The notes: generated from the sequence alone by a model not told the origin. DNA of 64,000 bases from Candidatus Woesearchaeota archaeon (GCA_017608625.1 JAFCFN010000002.1:28099-92098), one strand, 5' to 3'. Shown: positions 4,784-57,704, counted from the stretch's first letter. Translations and numbers: made by a program.

Positions 4784-5485
4784 ATGCAAAGAGTACATGA
4801 TAAAGAAAAGACTAAACTAACAGTAGCTAGATTAAAAAAAGATGGAGAAAATTTTGAAGTAAGTGTTGATTCAGAAGCTGCAATTAGGTTTAAGAAAGGT
4901 TTAGGGGATTTCAGTGAGGTTCTTAAAAATGAGAATATTTGGGCTAATGCAAAAAAAGGTCAGCTTGCATCTGAAAAAAAATTAAGAGCTGTTTTTAAAA
5001 CAGATGACAAAATTGAGATTGCTAAAACAATAGTAAAAGAAGGAGAAATACAACTAACAGCAGAATACAGAGCTAAGCAATTAGAAGAGAAAAAAAAGAG
5101 AATTATAGAAACAATTCATAGAAATGCTATTGACCCAAGAACAAATGCAGCTATTCCTATAACAAGACTTGAAAATGCATTTAAAGAAGCAAAAGTAAGG
5201 ATTGATGAGAGACCAATTGACCAACAGATGCAAGACATAATAAATAAATTGAGACCTGTTCTTCCGATAAGGTTTGAAATAAAAAAGATACAAGCTGTTA
5301 TTCCTGCTCAATATGCAGTAAAAAGTTATCATATCTTAAAAACATATAAAATATTGGAAGAAGAGTGGCAGAATGATGGTAGTTTAAAGGTAAGTATTGA
5401 GCTGCCGTCTGCTATGCAAAATGATTTTTTTGATAAAATAAATAGTGCAACACATGGCAGTGTTGAGACAAAGGAGATAAAATAA
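4784..5485 (+). CDS. Ribosome maturation factor SBDS/Sdo1
   Basis: ARLKKDGENFEV, GEIQLTAEYR and NAIDPRT motifs; conserved synteny. Confidence 0.95.
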   Translation: MQRVHDKEKTKLTVARLKKDGENFEVSVDSEAAIRFKKGLGDFSEVLKNENIWANAKKGQLASEKKLRAVFKTDDKIEIAKTIVKEGEIQLTAEYRAKQLEEKKKRIIETIHRNAIDPRTNAAIPITRLENAFKEAKVRIDERPIDQQMQDIINKLRPVLPIRFEIKKIQAVIPAQYAVKSYHILKTYKILEEEWQNDGSLKVSIELPSAMQNDFFDKINSATHGSVETKEIK

Positions 5486-5546
5486 AAGTAGGCTTTTTCT
5501 TTCTTTTAGAAAAAGAAAGAAAAATCCCACACGGCAAAAAGAAAGA

Positions 5547-5587
5547 AAAGGGGACTAAGCGAACAAACAAGCAATGTCGCCTAAACG
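5547..5587 (+). repeat. Structured dispersed repeat, family A, copy 3 (core)
   Basis: AAAGGGGACTAAGCGAACAAACAAGCAATGTCGCCTAAACG closely matches the core of the copies at 11243-11308 and 25704-25777. Confidence 0.85.
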
Positions 5588-5622
5588 ATCAACCCGTTTG
5601 TGGGTTGTGGAGATAAAATAAA

Positions 5623-6318
5623 ATGGGAAAATTACTAGTTAAGGAAAAAGAAGTTGTAGTTCCTGGAGAGGATCTGGCAGAAGGTATGGATCTTTTACCA
5701 GGCGAAGGCTGTTATAGAGATGAAAACAAAATAGTTGCTGCAAGATTGGGATTGGTTAAAGTAGGTGGCAGATTAATAAAATTAATACCTCTATCAGGAA
5801 AATATCTACCAAAGAAAAATGATGTTATTATTGGTAAAATAACAGAAATAACATTAATGGGATGGAGAGTTGATACTAATTCTGCTTATCCTGCAATGTT
5901 GTCTTTAAGAGATGCAACATCAGAGTATATAGCAAAAGGAGCTAATTTATCGCAATATTACGCAATAGGAGATTACATTGTTGCCAAAATAACTAATGTT
6001 ACATCTCAAAATCTAGTTGATTTAACAACAAAAGGTCCTGGATTACATAAACTAAAAGGTGGCAGAATAATCTCTGTTCAACCTACAAAAGTGCCAAGAA
6101 TAATTGGAAAAGCAGGGAGCATGGTTAATATGATAAAAAAAGCAACTAACTCAAAAATAATTGTTGGCCAAAATGGTCTAGTATGGATTCAAGCTGAGCC
6201 GAAAATGGAGTTGATTGCTGTTGAGGCAATAAGAATGATAGAAAAATATGCTCATGTTGAAGGTTTAACAGACAAAGTAAAAGAGTTTTTAGACAAAGCA
6301 ATTAAAGGTGGGAGATAA
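5623..6318 (+). CDS. rrp4: Exosome RNA-binding subunit Rrp4
   Basis: VVVPGEDLA; S1 and KH domains (VPRIIGKAGSM). Confidence 0.96.
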   Translation: MGKLLVKEKEVVVPGEDLAEGMDLLPGEGCYRDENKIVAARLGLVKVGGRLIKLIPLSGKYLPKKNDVIIGKITEITLMGWRVDTNSAYPAMLSLRDATSEYIAKGANLSQYYAIGDYIVAKITNVTSQNLVDLTTKGPGLHKLKGGRIISVQPTKVPRIIGKAGSMVNMIKKATNSKIIVGQNGLVWIQAEPKMELIAVEAIRMIEKYAHVEGLTDKVKEFLDKAIKGGR

Positions 6319-7018: not shown

Positions 7019-7794
7019 ACTACAGAGAAGCAAAAGAGCATATAGAAGGTTTGTTGAATCAAGGAATAAGGTTAGATGGTAGAAAGTTAACTGAGTATAG
7101 AAAACCGATTAAAGTAGAACCTGGTTTTATAGAAACAGCAGAAGGTTCTGCAAGAGTAATCATAGGGGAAACAGAGGTTATTGTTGGAGTAAAGATGGCT
7201 GTTGAAGAACCTTACCCAGACACTCCTGATCAAGGTAATTTAATGGTTGGTGCAGAGTTAACACCTTTATCAAATCCTGAGTTTGAGTCAGGACCTCCTG
7301 GAATACAAGCAATTGAGCTTGCAAGGGTTATTGATAGAGGTATTAGGGAAAGTAAAATGATTGACTCAAAAAAATTATGTATTAAAAAAGGAGAGAAAGT
7401 TTGGGCTGTTATGATTGATATAAGCCCTATAAATGATGCAGGTAATTTATTTGATGCTGGTGCTTTAGGAGCAATAGCTGCTTTGAAAAGCACAAGATTT
7501 CCTGAGTATGATGGAGAAAAAGTAAATTATAAAAAACATACAAACAAAAAGTTACCTTTAAATAAAATCCCAATATCTGTTACTGTACATAAAATAGGTG
7601 AACATTTAATTATTGATCCTCTGACAGAGGAAGAGAATGTAAGTGATGCAAGATTAACAGTAGTGGTAAGAGATGATGGAAAAATTTGCGCTTTACAAAA
7701 AGGAGGAAGCATGCCTTTAAGTTCAGAGGAATTAGATTCTATGCTTAAGTTGGGTGCTGAAAAAAGTAAAGAATTAAGAAAATTTATTGAATAA
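7015..7794 (+). CDS. rrp42: Exosome core subunit Rrp42
   Basis: GIRLDGRKLTEYR, TAEGSARV and ELARVIDRGIRES motifs. Confidence 0.96.
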   Translation: MNYREAKEHIEGLLNQGIRLDGRKLTEYRKPIKVEPGFIETAEGSARVIIGETEVIVGVKMAVEEPYPDTPDQGNLMVGAELTPLSNPEFESGPPGIQAIELARVIDRGIRESKMIDSKKLCIKKGEKVWAVMIDISPINDAGNLFDAGALGAIAALKSTRFPEYDGEKVNYKKHTNKKLPLNKIPISVTVHKIGEHLIIDPLTEEENVSDARLTVVVRDDGKICALQKGGSMPLSSEELDSMLKLGAEKSKELRKFIE

Positions 7795-9329: not shown

Positions 9330-10312
9330 TTTATTCTCGGATAAATATTAGGTAACATAAATACTTTACTAATCTTAACAGCAATGCCTTTTTCTTTTTT
9401 CATTATTTGCTCTGAGGAAAGCTTTACTGTTCCTAAAGCAATTAATTCATCTTTTAAACTCATAACAGCAACCAAATCGTTTTCTTCAATTCCTGAGTTC
9501 AGTTTGCTTATTCCTGGGATTGCTAAGTCTATGCCATGACATAATGCATTTACTGTACTATCTAAGACCCATATTTTTGGTAAATGTTCTATTGCTTTCT
9601 CAATTGGCTGAATACAGTATCTTAAATATTTTTCATTATTTTCGTTTTTCCAAAAGTGATAAGCGTCTGCCAAATCTTGTAAAGTGATTAAATTGCTTTG
9701 CTCATCAAAACAAGCCACTTTTGTTCTTCTTAGCTCTGACATATGTGCCCCACATCCTAATTTAACTCCAATATCATGAATTAGTTTTCTTACATATGTT
9801 CCTGCTTCACATCCTATCTTTAATAAAACATCTTGGCCATCCATCTCAAGTAACTCAAGATAGTATATCTCTTTCTCTCGTAGTTTTCTTTTGACAGCTG
9901 ATCTTACAGGAGGCAGTTGTTTGATTTTTCCTGTAAATTCTTTTAGAACTGATTTTAGCTTTCCACCAGCAACTAACTTATGTAAATGCATTACAGCAAC
10001 ATATTCCTTACCTGCTTTCAGTAATGTTTGCACTATTCTTGTTGCTCTACCAAGTGCTGTTGGCAAAACTCCTGTTACTTTTGGATCTAGTGTCCCAGAA
10101 TGACCTGCTTTTTCAATATGCAAGATTTTCTGAACATAATCTGAACATTGATGAGATGTTGGACCAGCAGGTTTATCTAGATTTATGATTCCATAATTAA
10201 TCAGCTCTTCTATTGGTCTATTATCCGGATAATTTCCATACTCATTATTTGTTCTTGACCTTTTTTTAACTAAGATTTCTCTTTTTATATTTTCAAAAGG
10301 GAGTTTTGACAT
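9326..10312 (-). CDS. cbf5: H/ACA pseudouridine synthase Cbf5
   Basis: DKPAGPTSHQ, GHSGTLDPKVTG, CEAGTYVRKL and C-terminal PUA domain. Confidence 0.97.
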   Translation of the reverse strand: MSKLPFENIKREILVKKRSRTNNEYGNYPDNRPIEELINYGIINLDKPAGPTSHQCSDYVQKILHIEKAGHSGTLDPKVTGVLPTALGRATRIVQTLLKAGKEYVAVMHLHKLVAGGKLKSVLKEFTGKIKQLPPVRSAVKRKLREKEIYYLELLEMDGQDVLLKIGCEAGTYVRKLIHDIGVKLGCGAHMSELRRTKVACFDEQSNLITLQDLADAYHFWKNENNEKYLRYCIQPIEKAIEHLPKIWVLDSTVNALCHGIDLAIPGISKLNSGIEENDLVAVMSLKDELIALGTVKLSSEQIMKKEKGIAVKISKVFMLPNIYPRIK

Positions 10313-10711: not shown

Positions 10712-11242
10712 TTATTCCTTTTTAGCAGCTAACTCAGCAGCTGTTGGAACTTTTTCAGGTTTTTTCTCTTTTTCTTCTTCCTTTGGTTTGGTTTCTTCTT
10801 TCTGAGCAGGTTTTTCTTCTTTAACTTTTTCTTCTTTCTTTTCTTTAACATTCTTCTCCTCAGCCTTTGCCTCTTCCTTCTTCTCCTCATTCTTTTCTGC
10901 AGGTTTTGTCTCTTTCTTTTTTTCTTCTTTTGCTTCAGGCTTTTTAGCAACCTCTTTGATAGGTTTACCAATTAACTCTGCCTTAACCAAACCTTTATCA
11001 TCTTTTATAGCATTTATTTTAATATGATGAGGAGGATTTCTCATTCCTCTTTGCCAGATTGCTTCATTAAGATATTTACCAATTTTAATATTGTCTGATT
11101 TCATATGTTTAATTAGAAATTGTTTTAGAGCTGTTATTGCTTTTTTAGCTCTTTTGTATTTTGGAACTTTAAGCCATTCTTTTCTAAGAGGAACATTATA
11201 AGTTCTTTCCAATACTATTTTTGGAGTTGTTTCTTTTGCCAT
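10712..11242 (-). CDS. rpl31e: 50S ribosomal protein L31e with long Lys/Glu-rich C-terminal tail
   Basis: ERTYNVPLRK, RAKKAI and IWQRGMRNPP motifs followed by low-complexity tail. Confidence 0.95.
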   Translation of the reverse strand: MAKETTPKIVLERTYNVPLRKEWLKVPKYKRAKKAITALKQFLIKHMKSDNIKIGKYLNEAIWQRGMRNPPHHIKINAIKDDKGLVKAELIGKPIKEVAKKPEAKEEKKKETKPAEKNEEKKEEAKAEEKNVKEKKEEKVKEEKPAQKEETKPKEEEKEKKPEKVPTAAELAAKKE

Positions 11243-11308
11243 AACCGTTAGCCAGTTAACGTCTGGGGAACATTGTTTGTTTGTTCGCTTAGTTCCCCTT
11301 TGTTAACC
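11243..11308 (-). repeat. Structured dispersed repeat, family A, copy 1 (between SD and ATG of rpl31e)
   Basis: GGTTAAC-AAA-GGGGAAC-N20-GTTCCCC-AGAC-GTTAACT-GGCTAAC-GGTT, immediately followed by ATG. Confidence 0.9.
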
Positions 11309-11322
11309 TTTACCTCCTTTCA

Positions 11323-11496
11323 TTATGCTTTTATTTTAGTTCTTCTCCAAGATCTTTTAACAGCAGTATGCCTGCCAGGATGAATTCTTCTGCCTTTACC
11401 ATAAATCTTTGGAACTGTCCAAAAAGGCGCCCATTTTGTTTGTTTGTGGGCTTTTGCAAGTCTCAGCTTTTTTGCTTTTGGTTTATACTTTGCCAT
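11323..11496 (-). CDS. rpl39e: 50S ribosomal protein L39e (not in ORF track)
   Basis: Hand translation MAKYKPKAKKLRLAKAHKQTKWAPFWTVPKIYGKGRRIHPGRHTAVKRSWRRTKIKA; sits between rps19e and rpl31e. Confidence 0.9.
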   Translation of the reverse strand: MAKYKPKAKKLRLAKAHKQTKWAPFWTVPKIYGKGRRIHPGRHTAVKRSWRRTKIKA

Positions 11497-11497
11497 T

Positions 11498-12052
11498 TTA
11501 GGATTTCTTTTCTTCAGTTCCTTTCTTCTTTCTTGGTCTGCCTCTTTTCTTTTTTGGTTTTTCTTCTTTTTCTGCCTTCTCTTTTTCTGGTTTTTCTTTT
11601 TTCTTTTTCTCTTTTCTTGCTATTGGTTTGCCAGTAATTTGAGAGACTATATTAAGCAAAAATGAATTTCCTTTAACTGTAAGAATTCTTCCTTTATGAA
11701 CTCCTTTTTGAGCTTGTTTTATTAGACCAGCTTTCTCTAGAGCTTGCAAAATTTTTCTGATTATGTTTCCGGATCCTTTATAGAAATGTTCTGGTTTATG
11801 GCCTCTTCTTTTTCTGCCACCAAACTTTGTCCTCAATTTACTAACTCCCACTGGACCTAACAAAGCTATCTTTCTCAATACAGCTGCAGCTCTTATATAC
11901 CACCAGTCTGGGTCTACAGGAGGTCTTTCTTTATGCATTCCTGTTTTTACAAAAGCTGCCCATCTAGGTGGTTTTAGTTCTGGCAGTTTCTTAAGTTCTT
12001 CTGCTGCTTTTTTTATTAATTGATCAGCGTTTACTTCATGTATTGTTGTCAT
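11498..12052 (-). CDS. rps19e: 30S ribosomal protein S19e with basic tail
   Basis: WAAFVKTG, ERPP and DWWYIRAAAVLRK motifs. Confidence 0.97.
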   Translation of the reverse strand: MTTIHEVNADQLIKKAAEELKKLPELKPPRWAAFVKTGMHKERPPVDPDWWYIRAAAVLRKIALLGPVGVSKLRTKFGGRKRRGHKPEHFYKGSGNIIRKILQALEKAGLIKQAQKGVHKGRILTVKGNSFLLNIVSQITGKPIARKEKKKKEKPEKEKAEKEEKPKKKRGRPRKKKGTEEKKS

Positions 12053-18083: not shown

Positions 18084-18121
18084 AGAATGATTAGAAAATG
18101 GAGAGGATTTAAAAAGGTTTT

Positions 18122-18166
18122 GAAAATCCAAAGGATTTTCAAGAGCTTAGAAAATCTTTGATTTTC
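18122..18166. repeat. AT-rich double-hairpin repeat, family B, copy 1
   Basis: GAAAATCC-AAA-GGATTTTC-N8-AGAAAATCTTTGATTTTC; related copy at 30758-30803. Confidence 0.8.
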
Positions 18167-25130: not shown

Positions 25131-25703
25131 TTAGACTCCAACAAACAACAAATGTTTTTCTTTACCTTCTAATTCAGCAAGGATCCTTTTTATGATAATC
25201 TCTTCAGGATTAGGTATTAACTTAACTCTCTTTTTGATGTCTTCAAAACTCTCAAATGGTTTCTCCTTCCTTGCTTCAATTATTTCCCACATGTGTTTTT
25301 TGCCTATTCCTGGCAGTAGCTCTATCTGATGAATCCTTGTACTTAATGGTTGTGCTTTGTTGAAGAAATCCACAAACCTCTGCTCATTTTTCTCAACAAG
25401 GTCTTTAATTACAAATTTTAATTCATTCCTTGCTGTTGCAGTGAGTTTGTTAAAGGGTAACTTACCTAGTATGTGATGTATTTTATCCCTTTTTTCTGTA
25501 CCTATATAAACCTCTTCATAAGGTTGTAAAAAAACATCCTTTTTTGGAACTAACTCCAATAATGTAAAGTGATCTTTACCAATTGCTTGAGCAATGGCTG
25601 TTTTTCTGTGAGCAGGTCTAGGATCAAAAGGATAACCATGCGGCAGATAGTCTAGTACAATTACCCATTCTTCTCTTGGCCTTTCTTTTTTTTCAACTAT
25701 CAT
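25131..25703 (-). CDS. DUF655 predicted RNA-binding protein
   Basis: VLDYLPHG, FTLLEL and ELLPGIGKK motifs; follows rpl21e-rpoF. Confidence 0.93.
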   Translation of the reverse strand: MIVEKKERPREEWVIVLDYLPHGYPFDPRPAHRKTAIAQAIGKDHFTLLELVPKKDVFLQPYEEVYIGTEKRDKIHHILGKLPFNKLTATARNELKFVIKDLVEKNEQRFVDFFNKAQPLSTRIHQIELLPGIGKKHMWEIIEARKEKPFESFEDIKKRVKLIPNPEEIIIKRILAELEGKEKHLLFVGV

Positions 25704-25777
25704 AACCGTTAGCCAGTTAACGTCTGGGCGACATGCGCTCGCAACAAAGTTGCTCGCTTAGTCCCCCTTTGTTAACC
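25704..25777 (-). repeat. Structured dispersed repeat, family A, copy 2 (between SD and ATG of DUF655 gene)
   Basis: 28 nt (plus strand CATAACCGTTAGCCAGTTAACGTCTGGG, start codon included) identical to copy 1; far end also near-identical. Confidence 0.9.
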
Positions 25778-25838
25778 TTACCTCCATTTCTTTTTGAACT
25801 AATCATTTTTAATTAATGTTAGAATTTAACCCTGTTAT

Positions 25839-30347: not shown

Positions 30348-30809
30348 TTATTTTGCTAGCTGAGAAATTTCTTTTTCAATTTTCTCAGCTTGTGAATTTA
30401 AGTTTTGAATATTTTCAAACACTTCTTTCTGTATTTTTTGAATTTCTATAAATTGTTTTTCAATTAGTTTTTTTGTATCTTCTACTGTTTTTTTTACTGT
30501 TACTGCTGCACCAACATTTACAATTAATTCTTTATTGTTTTTTAGAGTTGCTTTGGCAAATATGCCTGGAGATATTGGAACTAGAATATTGCTTCCTTCT
30601 CTTATATTTTCAAACTCATCTAAAGTTTTTTTTGAATTAGCTAACTCCACTAATTGATTTTCTAATAGCTGCATCTGCTTCTGTTGTTCTCTTATCTGAG
30701 CTGTAATAAGTTGCAACTCAAGATATTTCTGCTGTAATTGATCTTTCTGTTTATTTGGAAAATCCTGCGGATTTTCTGAATTCTTAAAAATCTTTGATTT
30801 TTTAGACAT
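30348..30809 (-). CDS. pfdA: Prefoldin alpha subunit; N-terminus contains a family B repeat
   Basis: ILVPISPGIF and IVNVGAAV motifs with coiled coils; upstream of ftsY. Confidence 0.92.
   Translation of the reverse strand: MSKKSKIFKNSENPQDFPNKQKDQLQQKYLELQLITAQIREQQKQMQLLENQLVELANSKKTLDEFENIREGSNILVPISPGIFAKATLKNNKELIVNVGAAVTVKKTVEDTKKLIEKQFIEIQKIQKEVFENIQNLNSQAEKIEKEISQLAK
30758..30803. repeat. AT-rich double-hairpin repeat, family B, copy 2 (in frame within pfdA)
   Basis: GAAAATCC-TGC-GGATTTTC-N8-TAAAAATCTTTGATTTTTA. Confidence 0.8.
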
Positions 30810-49599: not shown

Positions 49600-50421
49600 A
49601 TGGATAAAAAAGAGGTTGGGCAAAAGATAGAAACAGAGTTAAAGTTGCAGGGAAAGAGTAAGCAGACAATAAAGATGTACTCTTTCTATAACCTAGGTTT
49701 TCTGGATTTTATTAAAAAAGACCCTGAACAGATTAGAGAGGATGACATAAAACAATATCTAGCAGATTTGCTTGAAAAGGGCAATGATATAGGAACAGTG
49801 GCTTTAGCAAGGTCTGCTTTAAGGTTTTTTTATGATGGAATGCTAAAAAAAGGTATAACTGTTGATATTAAAACGCCAAAAAAACAGAGAAAACTGCCTG
49901 ATGTGCTAACAAAAGATGAAATTAAGGCATTGATCAATGCTGCTGATAATTTAAGAGACAAATTACTTATAGAGTTTATGTATTCTGCTGGTTTAAGAGT
50001 GAGTGAATGCGCTAGTTTAAAGAGAAGTGATTTGAATATTGAGGAAAAAACTGGTTTGTTAAAGCATGGCAAAGGAGGGAAAGATAGGTTTTTCATTTTA
50101 TCAGATAGGCTTACAGAAGACTTAAAACAGTATTTGGCCAACCATAATAATGAGTATATCTTTCCTGTTGAAAACAAGCCTATATCTACAAGAAGAATAC
50201 AGGCTATTGTGCATAAATTAGCAAAAAAAGCAGGCATAAAGAAGAAAGTTTATTGCCATTTATTAAGACATAGTTTTGCAACTCATCTGCTAGAAGCAGG
50301 AGTTGATATTAGAAAGATACAAGAGTTACTTGCACATTCAAATTTGCAAACAACACAGTTTTATACTCAAGTTAGTAAGAAAGAATTAAAGAAAGTTAAG
50401 AGTCCTCTTGACAGTTTATAA
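49600..50421 (+). CDS. xerA: XerA-like tyrosine recombinase
   Basis: R-K-H-R-H-Y catalytic set: GLRVSE, GKGGKDR, HLLRHSFATH, LLAHSNLQTTQFY. Confidence 0.93.
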   Translation: MDKKEVGQKIETELKLQGKSKQTIKMYSFYNLGFLDFIKKDPEQIREDDIKQYLADLLEKGNDIGTVALARSALRFFYDGMLKKGITVDIKTPKKQRKLPDVLTKDEIKALINAADNLRDKLLIEFMYSAGLRVSECASLKRSDLNIEEKTGLLKHGKGGKDRFFILSDRLTEDLKQYLANHNNEYIFPVENKPISTRRIQAIVHKLAKKAGIKKKVYCHLLRHSFATHLLEAGVDIRKIQELLAHSNLQTTQFYTQVSKKELKKVKSPLDSL

Positions 50422-51571: not shown

Positions 51572-51616
51572 TTTTTATTAGAAAATAGTCTTAAATATAT
51601 AAATTTTTTGTATTTT

Positions 51617-51749
51617 TGGGAATATTTTGGGAATATATTGAGACTATTCTGGGAATATTTTGGGAATATATATCGTCGATAAATAATATAAAATTGAGAC
51701 TATTATGAGACCATTTTGAGACTATCTTAGGAATGTTCTGAGAATGTAA
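51617..51749 (+). repeat. 11-bp tandem array, 5+5 units
   Basis: Units start at 51617, 51628, 51639, 51650, 51661 and 51695, 51706, 51717, 51728, 51739; consensus TGRGAMTATTY. Confidence 0.88.
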
Positions 51750-51921: not shown

Positions 51922-52213
51922 ATATAAAGTGAGATTAGGAGGTAGGGGTTTTGGGAAGATAGACCTCTCAGAAGAGTTTTTGATATACAAAAGTGAGAGT
52001 TAAGGTATTAAAAAAAGGTATAGAAAGGGGTTTAAGGCCTTTAAATAGGGCTCTGATATATAAAAGTGAGAGTTAGGTACATGGTCAAAGGGGCTTTTAA
52101 AGGTCTGAAACATGGGTAAGATGGTCCAATATATAGGAAAGTGAGAGTTTAAATATAAGTGGTTGTATGGTTGATGCAGGCAATTGGCCTTTTTTTATAT
52201 AGGAAAGTGAGAA
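51922..52213 (+). repeat. Five same-orientation iteron-like repeats ATATA(N1-3)AAAGTGAGA
   Basis: AAAGTGAGA starts at 51926, 51990, 52063, 52138 and 52204. Confidence 0.88.
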
Positions 52214-54710: not shown

Positions 54711-54826
54711 GGATGTTAAAATAAGTCAAGGTGTATATAAGCTTTTTTGTGATAGAGAATAGTCTTTACTCAAGATGATTTGGCTTTAAAATATAAAGAA
54801 AAAGAAAGAAAAATTTATTTTCTTTC

Positions 54827-57178
54827 TTATGCTGTGCTTACGCTAATGTCTGTTAGTGTTGTACCAGACACAGTTACTTCTTCCCCTGATAAAGTGTATT
54901 TATCAGGCTGAGCAACTACACTGCAAGCTCTTCTTGTGTCATCAGCTGTCCATCCAGCTACTACCAAAGCTACATTTCCGTTAGCATGTGTTACTAACTT
55001 AATTATAGCTTGGTTTTCTGGTATGGTTGATGCAGCGCCACATGCTGGATAGTCTAATCCAAGTGCAGCTGCTGCTGCTTTGTTGACACAAGGTCCACCA
55101 ACAATTATAGCGTTTTGTGCAGTTATGTCAGTAACTTCTGTGTCTAGTTTTGATGTACCAACAGACATTGGTGTTACTTGTACTGCTCCTTCAGCAACTG
55201 ATGTTGTGGTTGTTGCTGCTAGTTCAGTTACATATACATTGTAATCATTCTCTTCTTCTGGTACCCATATTTTTAAGTAGCTTCCATCATCTTTGTCAAG
55301 AACCATATAGGTTCCAAATGCTGTAAGTTCGTATTCTACTTCATTGTCATTGTCTGCTCCTCCGTCAAATGTACCTGTTAAAGATCCAATTTCTACATCA
55401 TTGTCATCAGTAGAGGATATTGTCACTTCTAGATCTGTTGCTTCACTTACATCGCTGTCTTCATCAATATTATCGGCTGATTCATCAAATTCGATTGTTG
55501 CGGTTCCACTGCTAGGATCCTTCAGTGTTATATTCATGTCATTTTTCGTCTGCAGTACATTTATAACGTCAATTATTTTACTTGCATTAGAGACATTACA
55601 AGGTGCTGCTACATTACATAAAGTAATCTTACCATTGCTTGGAATATCTGTTCCTCCTGTTTCATTCAACACATAAATTGTTGGTGAATCTATCAAAGTT
55701 TCATTAGTCTGTACTGTTGTTTTAGAACCTGTACTTAAATCCTCAAATACAACTTCATCCTCACTAGCGTCTATATCATATACTTCATAAATTTTTGTTA
55801 CTGCATTATCACCTGTACCTTCATTTAAGATAATTATTTTGTCTTCCTCTATTCCTTTATATTTCCCTGTAAGATTAAATAAATCAGCGTATTTTGTAAT
55901 GTTTGTATCTGGATAACTTCCCTCATAAGGTGTAAAGCTATATGCTTCGCCATCTCTGTTAGTAAATGTTATTTTTAATTTATCTCCGCTTCTAGACAAC
56001 TCAATATAGTCCTTTGAACTAGAATCCAATGCTGGGTCTACTGAAACAAAGCTTAGCTTAAATGTTCCAAATAGCGGATCAATAAATTCTTCTCCTATTT
56101 CTAAATAGTTTTTCTCATCATCATCCATATCTGAAGGAGTTACTGTGAAAGTTATGGTATCTATTGCTTCAATATTACTTACTGTGGCTGTTACACCTTC
56201 TAAGTCTTCCCCATCAACTTCTACTTGTTGATCAGTAGTACCTTCTGGAATAACTATTTTATCGCTTCCAACAAAGATTTCTACAGATGCTGTTTCTGTT
56301 GGAACTGTCTGCATAAAGATCTCGCTGATATAGTAATCTCCTGCAACTGTATCTCCTTCTTCAACTTGATATGCTTTGTCATTTATCTTTATTGTTGCTT
56401 CGTCTGTATCTGTGTTAGCTCCAACTAATTCTATTGTATCATCTCCTATGGTTACTGTTTCTCCAACAGCAATAGTTTGTGTTACATCTGAAGCATAAAG
56501 CACCAATTCATCGTCGCCTGCATCCATATCTGGATCAAATGTTAATTCCTTGCCTGCGATTACAATCTTTTCATTGTCATCTAAAGCGGTAGCATTCAAT
56601 GTGTCGTCAAAGTCTACTACTATTTTATATGCGTATCCTGAATCTTGGTTTAAGTATAGAACAGGTATTTCGTCACTTGCTTTATCAGCATTAGCAACGT
56701 AATCCTCTTCATTTAATGAACCAAAAGTAACAGCGTCACCACTCAACTGAATTTCCTGAGTATAATCATAGTCTTCGTCTTCTGATTCATCAGTCACTGT
56801 TCCATCTGCTAAAATTGTTGGAAGATCAGCTTTTTTGAGTTCTCTGTCAGTCTCATTTAATCCTTCTCCATAGTTTAAATCATCAGCTGTTCCTTGAATA
56901 AGTACGCTTTCTCCAGTCACAGTCACAACTTCTGCTGCTCCTTCTACTGGTGTTGTCATTCTAGCTTGCAAACTTGCAGCTATGTCTGTTACACCAATTA
57001 CGTCAGAACTAGCTGCATCTGCTCCTACCACCAATATTGTATTTAGCTCACCATCTTTCAAGAATGGTGATGGGTAGTCGCTCAGATCTGCTGCCATTGC
57101 TCCTAACACAGTTGCTCCTAGCATCACTGCGCCAGAACCTATAGCAGCAATCCTTTTGATTGCTTTCTTCAGTTTCAT
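54827..57178 (-). CDS. S-layer protein
   Basis: KRIAAIGSGAVMLGAT signal, DLSDYPSPF, VVGADAASSD and C-terminal IIVGGPCVN; very acidic; GGAGGT SD. Confidence 0.9.
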   Translation of the reverse strand: MKLKKAIKRIAAIGSGAVMLGATVLGAMAADLSDYPSPFLKDGELNTILVVGADAASSDVIGVTDIAASLQARMTTPVEGAAEVVTVTGESVLIQGTADDLNYGEGLNETDRELKKADLPTILADGTVTDESEDEDYDYTQEIQLSGDAVTFGSLNEEDYVANADKASDEIPVLYLNQDSGYAYKIVVDFDDTLNATALDDNEKIVIAGKELTFDPDMDAGDDELVLYASDVTQTIAVGETVTIGDDTIELVGANTDTDEATIKINDKAYQVEEGDTVAGDYYISEIFMQTVPTETASVEIFVGSDKIVIPEGTTDQQVEVDGEDLEGVTATVSNIEAIDTITFTVTPSDMDDDEKNYLEIGEEFIDPLFGTFKLSFVSVDPALDSSSKDYIELSRSGDKLKITFTNRDGEAYSFTPYEGSYPDTNITKYADLFNLTGKYKGIEEDKIIILNEGTGDNAVTKIYEVYDIDASEDEVVFEDLSTGSKTTVQTNETLIDSPTIYVLNETGGTDIPSNGKITLCNVAAPCNVSNASKIIDVINVLQTKNDMNITLKDPSSGTATIEFDESADNIDEDSDVSEATDLEVTISSTDDNDVEIGSLTGTFDGGADNDNEVEYELTAFGTYMVLDKDDGSYLKIWVPEEENDYNVYVTELAATTTTSVAEGAVQVTPMSVGTSKLDTEVTDITAQNAIIVGGPCVNKAAAAALGLDYPACGAASTIPENQAIIKLVTHANGNVALVVAGWTADDTRRACSVVAQPDKYTLSGEEVTVSGTTLTDISVSTA

Positions 57179-57442: not shown

Positions 57443-57655
57443 TGCGGGGAGGAGGAATTTCGTATAACCGCAAAGGGGACTTCGGTTGCTGAAGGCAACT
57501 AGAAGTCGCCTAAAGCGTTAACCGATTTTGCGGTTAATTCGAACCCCCGTAGGCACTAAGCCAACAGGTTGCCTACACATGAAGTGGCCTAAGCTTAGAC
57601 TTTTCTAAAAATTGATTAGGATAACTGTCCCGTTTGACCACTCCGGCATCCCCGC
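57443..57655 (-). tRNA. tRNA-Leu(TAG) with three introns: 30/31 (57595-57624), 37/38 (18 nt), 59/60 (57457-57537)
   Basis: BHB helices GGAC/GUCU, CUUA/UAGG and UUCG/CGAA; long variable arm; acceptor GCGGGGA/TCCCCGC. Confidence 0.9.
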
Positions 57656-57704
57656 AAATAAAAACATAAAATTATGTTGTGTTATAAAAAGCTATTGTTT
57701 TTGG

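Follow-up and report, generated by a model that had tools for sequence, protein, structure and literature searches.

An insert at the DUF655 start codon as a probable member of a family of small hairpin insertion elements in a Woesearchaeota-like archaeon

Comparison with known systems

MITEs and small palindromic repeats are exemplified by the SM elements of Sulfolobus, the Correia elements of Neisseria and the Rickettsia palindromic elements. Transposases of the IS200/IS605 and RAYT groups insert beside a fixed target of 4–5 nt and leave no duplication of the target. In phage T4 gene 38, a hairpin bridges the ribosome-binding site. In the Thermoproteales, near-identical BHB introns have been transposed among tRNA genes (Fujishima et al. 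2010, as described in PMC4090602); according to that review (PMC4090602), the mechanism by which archaeal protein-spliced introns spread to new sites is still unknown. Coupling of translation by termination and reinitiation is also known in archaea (PMC6728339).

The window analysed here is the whole 64-kb stretch of DNA; an archaeal rRNA operon is present in it, and the best matches to its proteins are in Woesearchaeota/Nanoarchaeota MAGs. It contains an insert directly upstream of the DUF655 gene. We consider it probable, from the sequence comparisons below, that this insert, copy c2, belongs to a lineage-specific family of non-autonomous, non-coding hairpin insertion elements with variable target duplications. 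By analogy, the family comes closest to the BHB introns, near-identical to one another, that have been transposed among Thermoproteales tRNA genes: in both cases near-identical short non-coding sequences occupy unrelated sites, including non-canonical tRNA positions, and one copy here (c4), which has a BHB motif, is the 81-nt intron in the T-loop of a tRNA gene that has two further introns. The differences are that the host is a DPANN archaeon and not a crenarchaeon, that sister copies lie at protein-gene starts, lack a BHB motif and are flanked by long target duplications, and that the tRNA copy is antisense to the mRNA copies.

The likeness to MITEs and palindromic repeats is that the copies are short, non-coding, hairpin-forming, multi-copy and present or absent between relatives; they are presumably co-transcribed with their neighbours, and they are tolerated in a compact genome. 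Four copies lie in the 64 kb and two in other contigs, with sizes of 74–223 nt, and empty sites have been identified. The family departs from MITEs in its ends, those of the long forms (GTAGGC... / ...GGGTTGT) not being inverted repeats and the short forms having only an internal GGTTAAC/GTTAAC pairing. It departs from them also in its target duplications, which are not of one short length but span ~6 to ~28 nt and are undetectable at rpl31e, and in its insertion sites, which lie precisely at start codons or stop–start junctions. By these analogies we would file the family under small non-autonomous insertion elements, with one unusual link to protein-spliced introns. The case shows that a highly compact DPANN genome can tolerate insertions in essential genes at the very point where they are most sensitive.

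Structure of the insert in front of DUF655

The DUF655 (PF04919) gene lies on the minus strand at 25131–25703, and copy c2, a short-form element, occupies 25704–25783 on the same strand, directly 5′ of the DUF655 ATG (105.6 bits with R1, a covariance model built from c1 and c2). Copy c1, also a short form, is found at 11243–11320 on the minus strand, between the rpl39e stop (a TAATG overlap at 11321–11325) and the rpl31e ATG (11242–11240); its sequence recurs in an independent JGI contig, L170, a short contig of the same population. Read 5′ to 3′ on the minus strand, the c2 region comprises GGAGGT (25785–25780), AA, GGTTAAC (25777–25771), AAA and GGGGGAC (25767–25761), then a loop, and after the loop GTCGCCC (25732–25726), AGAC, GTTAAC (25721–25716) and TGGCTAACGGTT, which leads to the DUF655 ATG (25703–25701).

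A sequence-only reading of this DNA had described an ~80-nt structured insert between GGAGGT and the DUF655 ATG, with ends shared with a copy at rpl31e. Such an insert is present on the minus strand at 25704–25785, and its ends are as described: the 28 nt at the ATG end of c2 are identical to c1 at 11240–11267 (28/28), and the 26 nt at the 5′ end differ from c1 at a single base (25/26). Each of these end motifs occurs exactly twice in the 64-kb window, against 0.00 occurrences expected from shuffles. The description of the interior also stands. The inner stem changes from GGGGAAC/GTTCCCC in c1 to GGGGGAC/GTCGCCC in c2, an A–U to G–C replacement plus one G–G mismatch, and the loop is replaced in c2 by a hairpin of its own, GCAAC-TTT-GTTGC, at 25753–25741.

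In the predicted fold of c2, segment S1 (GGTTAAC, 25771–25777) forms an outer stem with segment S2 (GTTAAC). Hairpin H1 (25726–25767) pairs GGGGGAC with GTCGCCC around the one G–G mismatch and has a tandem G–A internal loop and an apical stem GCAAC/GUUGC. S2 and hairpin H2 (UAACUG-GCUAA-CGGUUA) together span 25703–25721, and the A of the DUF655 start codon is the final paired base of H2. All of these features lie on the minus strand. H2 and the S1:S2 outer stem are mutually alternative: the palindromic GTTAAC of S2 can pair with either GGTTAAC (S1) or GGTTA (S3), giving −30.5 kcal/mol for the outer-stem fold and −26.1 kcal/mol with H2 formed. The predicted folding energy is −30.2 kcal/mol for c2 (z −3.5 against shuffles) and −19.7 kcal/mol for c1 (z −2.6). 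The DUF655 AUG is predicted to be mostly unpaired in c2, and the rpl31e AUG to be paired in c1.

All members of the family share one architecture, consisting of AAA, hairpin H1 (GGGGRAC/GTYSCCC), a tail YARA(G)CGWTYAAC and then hairpin H2. Across six copies, H1 is 90% paired with 2 compensatory pairs, and its G–G mismatch is kept in four of the six; the H1 apex exists in three unrelated versions that are exchanged wholesale between copies. H2 is 100% paired across the family, with 2 compensatory pairs and one C–G to U–G change.

Target duplications

The 5′ flank of c2 carries a decayed copy of the target: ATGATTAGTTCAAAAAGAAATGG, at 25784–25806 on the minus strand, aligns to the gene start ATGATAGTTGAAAAAAAAGAAAGG at 25703–25680. 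By local alignment, 166 of 5,000 shuffles are equally good, and only 8 of the 1,954 ATG sites in the window score equally, the DUF655 start itself and the copy being among the eight. On this sequence evidence, c2 entered the DNA as an insertion precisely at the start codon of DUF655, and it duplicated ~23 nt of target, namely the ATG and the first ~7 codons. The GGAGGT at c2 is then probably a composite, its GG derived from the duplicated target (GAAAGG) and its AGGT from the 5′ end of the element. In a pairwise alignment, the same GGAGGT aligns to AGTGGGAAAG, which is internal to a longer family member.

The duplications differ in length from site to site (~6, 15, ~23, ~28 and ~28 nt). At copy c3 the two flanks, 5473–5487 and 5609–5623, are a perfect 15-nt duplication, GGAGATAAAATAAAA. 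The copy in metagenome contig L161 has a ~28-nt duplication with one mismatch, which holds the last codons and stop of the upstream gene and the overlapping ATG, and the copy in metagenome contig L158 has a flanking 28-nt repeat, also with one mismatch. The L158 repeat is itself a hairpin and resembles part of the tRNA-Leu intron and anticodon region of the window; from its sequence, it may not be a simple target duplication but a repeat module. At the tRNA copy c4 the duplication is ~6 nt, and at c1 (rpl31e) a long duplication sought by local alignment was not significant. The left flanks of the copies (ATAAAA, ATGAAC, GTGGTA) differ and have no common motif. Because the duplication lengths are variable, the flanking sequences point to the filling-in of staggered breaks or to target-primed copying, and not to a transposase with a fixed stagger. 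That the ends of c1 and c2 are near-identical, despite the decay of the duplication at DUF655, requires that the element be under selection or that the copies undergo gene conversion.

These duplications bear on two earlier proposals. The first was a target-site specificity for GGTTA. A GGTTA direct repeat was rejected as the target duplication: GGTTAAC at the 5′ end and GGTTA at the 3′ end both belong to the element and take part in its own pairing, and the real duplications are of 15, ~23 and ~28 nt. The second was an HUH/Y1 origin, in which an IS200/IS605 or RAYT Y1 (HUH) transposase mobilises a REP- or PATE-type element in the form of single-stranded DNA. The subterminal hairpins and the lack of coding capacity are consistent with such an element, but duplications of 15–28 nt and left flanks without a common motif contrast with a fixed target and no duplication, and no Y1 transposase gene is evident by eye among the ORFs of the 64-kb window. 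Nor could the element family be linked to any transposase, integrase or reverse transcriptase. Even with a report that, of transposase orthologues, only a REP-associated tyrosine transposase has strict matches in 256 Nanobdellota proteomes (bioRxiv 10.64898/2026.05.13.725050), we regard this origin as very unlikely.

Empty orthologous sites

R2, a covariance model built on the core that the copies have in common, detected the element in none of 82 DUF655 loci (80 orthologous loci and two closer contigs, with 87% and 82% protein identity), 61 rpl31e loci and 5 rrp4 loci of other species. These ~150 orthologous loci without the element have junctions of only 1–47 nt. In contig L082, with 82% protein identity, the rpoF–DUF655 spacer is 47 nt long and has no GGAGG; the distance from the rpl39e stop to the rpl31e start is 2–10 nt in the nine relatives inspected; and in L083, the closest relative, the SBDS stop and the rrp4 ATG lie 1 nt apart (caaaGGAGAtttaaaATG). 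Empty sites have thus been identified in L082, L083, L092 and others, and they bear out the suggestion that the sequence is a repeated, insertion-type element. Because the orthologous loci of other species lack the element and have short junctions, the ~80 nt including GGAGGT is, on this comparison of sequences, extra DNA in the Woesearchaeota-like DPANN lineage and not an old split spacer between a Shine–Dalgarno (SD) motif and the ATG.

Members of the family

The copy at DUF655 had been taken for the second of two; with models R1 and R2, at least four related copies (c1–c4) are found in the window. Copy c3, a long form of 121 nt, lies on the plus strand at 5488–5608, between SBDS and rrp4, and is matched by R1 at 5535–5600 (33.9 bits, E 1e-6). 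Copy c4 is the 81-nt intron in the T-loop (59/60) of tRNA-Leu(UAG), at 57458–57538 on the minus strand, and is matched by R2 at 57469–57524 on the plus strand (E 0.017). Two further copies lie in low-GC metagenome contigs: a 74-nt insert upstream of rps15 in L158 (30.7 bits) and, in L161, a 223-nt insert that separates a FlaI-like ATPase gene from a small ORF (54.6 bits). The L161 insert is colinear with the rrp4 insert c3, and pairwise alignments within the family are colinear along the elements. Short forms measure ~75 nt and long forms about 120–220 nt.

L158 and L161 were recovered with a degenerate pattern derived from the four window copies c1–c4 and scanned against genome, metagenome and viral contigs. 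They are the two real relatives among 14 matches in metagenome contigs; the other 12, in contigs of higher GC (0.37–0.66), were set aside as chance. Among 185,579 species genomes the pattern gave only 3 chance matches, all in high-GC bacteria, and viral contigs gave no match. An exact 20-mer from the 3′ end of the element had no match in the genome or metagenome contigs, and no similarity was found between the element and the rRNA of the window. The family appears to be confined to the Woesearchaeota-like lineage and a few related low-GC genomes.

The position of the copies in translation-initiation regions, as first suggested from two genes, holds more widely: all five copies that adjoin protein genes (c1, c2, c3, L158 and L161) lie at the start codon or within ~40 nt of it. 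They also share one orientation. This pattern could reflect a cis-regulatory leader RNA, protein-binding or riboswitch-like, that controls ribosome and RNA-processing genes by alternating between S1:S2 (AUG free) and H2 (S2:S3, with the A of the AUG paired). Such a switch, in which S2 would pair with S3 and cover the A of the AUG if the 5′ part were held open, is conceivable on the predicted structures, in which both helices are conserved with compensatory changes and the alternative pairings are only ~4.5 kcal/mol apart. Four of the five downstream genes (rpl31e, DUF655, rrp4 and rps15) are related to translation or RNA. The earlier proposal of a cassette common to RNA-related genes is weakened by the copy in L161, which sits in an archaellum/pilus-type operon, and by c4, which lies antisense within a tRNA intron. 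Against a leader RNA stand also the ~150 orthologous leaders without the element, the flanking target duplications, which indicate that the copies arrived by insertion, and the wholesale swapping of the H1 apex between copies. No Rfam family reaches its gathering score for any copy; by eye, no K-turn, C/D box, H/ACA or hammerhead signature is present. We judge a regulatory leader to be an unlikely explanation of the family.

Translation across the insert

An open reading frame of 29 codons, MISSKRNGGKVNKGGLSEQLCCERMSPRR followed by a stop, runs on the minus strand from the duplicated ATG (25806) through c2 to 25717. Its UAA stop, which is part of GUUAAC, precedes the DUF655 AUG by 13 nt. The upstream ORF MSPRR reported from the sequence is present (ATG TCG CCC AGA CGT TAA, 25734–25717), as the last five codons of this longer frame; its equivalent in c1 is MFPRR, also followed by a stop.

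Open frames of a related kind are found at other sites. In c3 and L161, an ORF begins at a conserved ATG located at the base of H1, continues into the duplicated target in frame with the upstream gene and ends at the stop of that gene, 1 nt before the downstream ATG or overlapping it. In L081, a sister contig with 87% DUF655 identity, an unrelated hairpin-rich insert of 140 nt lies at the same DUF655 start (9831–10030), flanked by a perfect 30-nt duplication of the first 30 nt of the gene; the duplicated ATG begins a 57-codon ORF whose stop overlaps the real start as ATGA. The end of the L081 insert, ...AAAAGGGTT, resembles the GGGTTG/CGGTT ends of the family.

These frames suggest a route by which DUF655 could still be translated. 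The element would be co-transcribed with rpl21e–rpoF–DUF655 and stay in the mRNA. Ribosomes would initiate at the duplicate of the ancestral ATG (25806), melt the stems of the element as they read the 29-codon frame, terminate at the UAA in GUUAAC and, 13 nt further on, reinitiate at the true AUG of DUF655. The upstream GGAGGU would be a by-product of the insertion junction and not the working SD motif. Because each single case of an open frame could be chance (about 1 in 8 for a frame of 29 codons at this base composition, by our estimate, and 1 in 3 for a single in-frame read-out, or ~1/9 for c3 and L161 jointly), we put forward coupling as the means by which DUF655 translation is maintained at c2 tentatively, as a possibility with somewhat less than an even chance. 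Since the pattern recurs in c2, c3, L161 and L081, the sequences suggest that only insertions that rebuild termination–reinitiation coupling survive; on the same kind of evidence, the family is probably tolerated at gene starts because translational coupling survives.

The stop–start junctions at which the insert ORFs of c3, L161 and L081 end, and the c2 stop 13 nt before the AUG, are like those described for archaeal termination–reinitiation in PMC6728339. The difference from the systems described there is that the upstream ORF here is a short frame made by the insertion and not a gene, and that the coupling is putative. An SD-like motif precedes only 18 of the 61 genes of the window, and many of the others look leaderless or coupled; initiation independent of an SD motif is therefore common in this window.

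The GGAGGT had been read as an SD motif separated from its ATG by the insert. As a mechanism, this would make a hairpin-bridged (split) ribosome-binding site, in which a hairpin of ~63 nt folds GGAGGU next to the AUG and the insert is functionally silent. The likeness to phage T4 gene 38 is that a stable hairpin separates an SD-like motif from the AUG. Here such a hairpin is found in both short copies, GGAGGU matches the SD type of other genes in the window, and the c2 AUG, as noted, is predicted to be mostly accessible. However, GGAGGT lies within inserted or duplicated DNA and is not conserved among other family members. Its last three bases (the motif spans 25780–25785 on the minus strand) are predicted to be paired, with an unpaired probability of 0.08–0.12, and the rpl31e AUG in c1 is itself predicted to be paired. 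After folding, 2 + 12 nt would remain, compared with 5–10 nt at other genes. The locus thus differs from gene 38 in its residual spacing of ~14 nt, in a motif that is predicted to be partly paired and in a motif that is not ancestral to the site. We find a split ribosome-binding site improbable. For annotation, the apparent SD motif 70 nt from the ATG is a warning, being an insertion artefact.

The tRNA-Leu copy and the BHB motif

Copy c4 lies in a tRNA-Leu(UAG) gene with three introns, at 57444–57656 on the minus strand. The other two introns, on the same strand, are one of 30 nt at about position 30/31 (57596–57625) and one of 18 nt at the canonical position 37/38 (57571–57588). Removal of the 30, 18 and 81 nt in silico leaves an 84-nt sequence that ARAGORN calls as tRNA-Leu(tag); the unspliced region 57444–57657 received no call from ARAGORN or from an Rfam scan at gathering scores, and this missed tRNA is a second warning for annotation. 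A stand-alone non-coding RNA (RNase P- or SRP-like) on the plus strand of 57444–57657 was considered and rejected, the minus strand being tRNA-Leu. In a BLAST search against the fetched loci, 57444–57657 matched the tRNA at 238–339 of contig L147, on the opposite strand.

The 18-nt intron has a textbook hBHBh′ motif at 37/38 (ACAGG-CUUA-GGC-CAC...GUG-UAGG-CAA-CCUGU). The borders of c4 read GGGGG-UUCG-AAU-[UAACCGCAAA...UUUGCGGUUA]-UA-CGAA-AUU-CCUCC, and the local fold has a 10-bp helix (z −5.4). This BHB is near-canonical, with a 4-bp central helix UUCG/CGAA, 3-nt bulges AAU and AUU and the T-stem GGGGG/CCUCC, and one extra UA opposite the first bulge. In silico, a cut after the second bulge base on both sides restores the T-loop UUCGAAU and a normal T-arm. 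DPANN-type endonucleases cut relaxed BHB motifs (PMC5829648 and PMC3239211). From this model, c4 is predicted to be a spliceable BHB intron in the tRNA-Leu T-loop. It holds the H1–H2 core as the reverse complement, so that the element is antisense to the tRNA; its tie to the family rests on a modest score (E 0.017), a colinear tail and H2, and identities of 11 and 10 nt with L158.

The same form of splicing might be thought to act on the protein-gene copies, with the tRNA splicing endonuclease removing the insert together with one copy of the duplication and restoring the ancestral junction. The presence of a BHB intron in the sister copy c4, the relaxed motifs accepted by DPANN-type endonucleases (PMC5829648) and the mRNA introns of this kind known in archaea (PMC4090602) would favour this. 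The copies were scanned in the mRNA sense for a BHB, defined as a central helix of 4 bp with flanking helices and two bulges of 3 nt. These settings pick up the canonical and T-loop introns of the tRNA, but they gave zero candidates for c1 or c2 and no junction-restoring candidate in c3, L158 or L161. The mRNA copies are also opposite in orientation to the tRNA intron, which, as we read the geometry, puts the bulges on the wrong side of the central helix. Splicing of the mRNA copies is the most improbable of the explanations weighed here. Because no BHB motif is found in the mRNA sense and the orientation is opposite to that of the tRNA intron, we infer from these models that the mRNA copies remain in the transcript.

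A broader connection between the family and introns is speculative and rather unlikely: the family would be a DNA-level mobile form of the archaeal BHB intron, spliced where a BHB forms in a tRNA loop and kept at gene starts only where coupling is rebuilt by the target duplication together with the short reading frame of the element. If this is true, the long variable duplications would be the first sequence footprints of the archaeal intron transposition mechanism, and would point to staggered-break or target-primed insertion. A family with one tRNA-intron member, and with plain insertions that have duplications and empty sites, would make the spread of introns testable by comparative genomics.

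Further observations concern the sequences around these tRNA genes. The tRNA at L147 238–339 is a tRNA-Leu(UAG) of a distant Woesearchaeote, without introns at the three positions of the window gene, and it has an 18-nt tandem duplicate of the T-arm (CGGCGGTTCGAATCCGTT / CGGCGGTTCGAATCCGCC). The 28-nt repeat that flanks the element in L158, at 414–441 and 516–543, is GGAGAC(T/A)AAGCAATTAGACTTTTTCTCC. Together with the linker that follows, it resembles the reverse complement of window 57585–57625 (CCTAAGCTTAGACTTTTCTAAAAATTGATTAGG), which corresponds to the tRNA-Leu anticodon loop and the 3′ part of the first intron; BLAST gave no match at E < 0.05. The resemblance hints, at the level of sequence, that intron or exon fragments travel with these elements.

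Other repeats in and around the window

A second family of hairpin repeats occurs at 18118–18165 and 30754–30801, with the form GAAAATCC-NNN-GGATTTTC plus AGAAAATCTTTGATTTT. The copy at 30754–30801 extends the prefoldin-beta gene (30348–30809, minus strand) by 54 nt in frame, immediately behind its ATG; it adds 18 residues that are absent from the sister contig L081, and a possible duplication of ~10 nt (AAAAAATCAA / AGAAAGATCAA) accompanies it. In being inserted in frame in the N-terminus of a gene, this second family is like the Rickettsia palindromic elements. Hairpins similar to it are found at 7700–7830 of L161.

A/T-rich palindromes (CTTTTTCTTTCTTTT-AGA-AAAAGAAAGAAAAA) lie right after stop codons at 5493–5525 and 54797–54830 and at 7670–7855 of L161, and from their sequences look like terminator hairpins. 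Together with a recurring CCCAC(A/C)CGGCAAAAGAAAGAAAA module, they make up the 5′ module of the long-form elements.

A 650-nt intergenic region contains, at 51604–51747 and 51983–52156, an array of 11-nt periodic repeats similar to TTTTGGGAATAT and three repeats of ~26 nt, ATATACAAAAGTGAGAGTTAAGGTAT, spaced 73–75 nt apart. An ORF nearby, at 49600–50421, is tyrosine recombinase-like by eye. By its sequence, the region could be a replication origin, a set of iterons or the edge of an integrated element. Finally, the L31e (10712–11242) and S19e (11498–12052) proteins, both encoded on the minus strand, have long lysine/glutamate-rich C-terminal tails and are about double the usual length.
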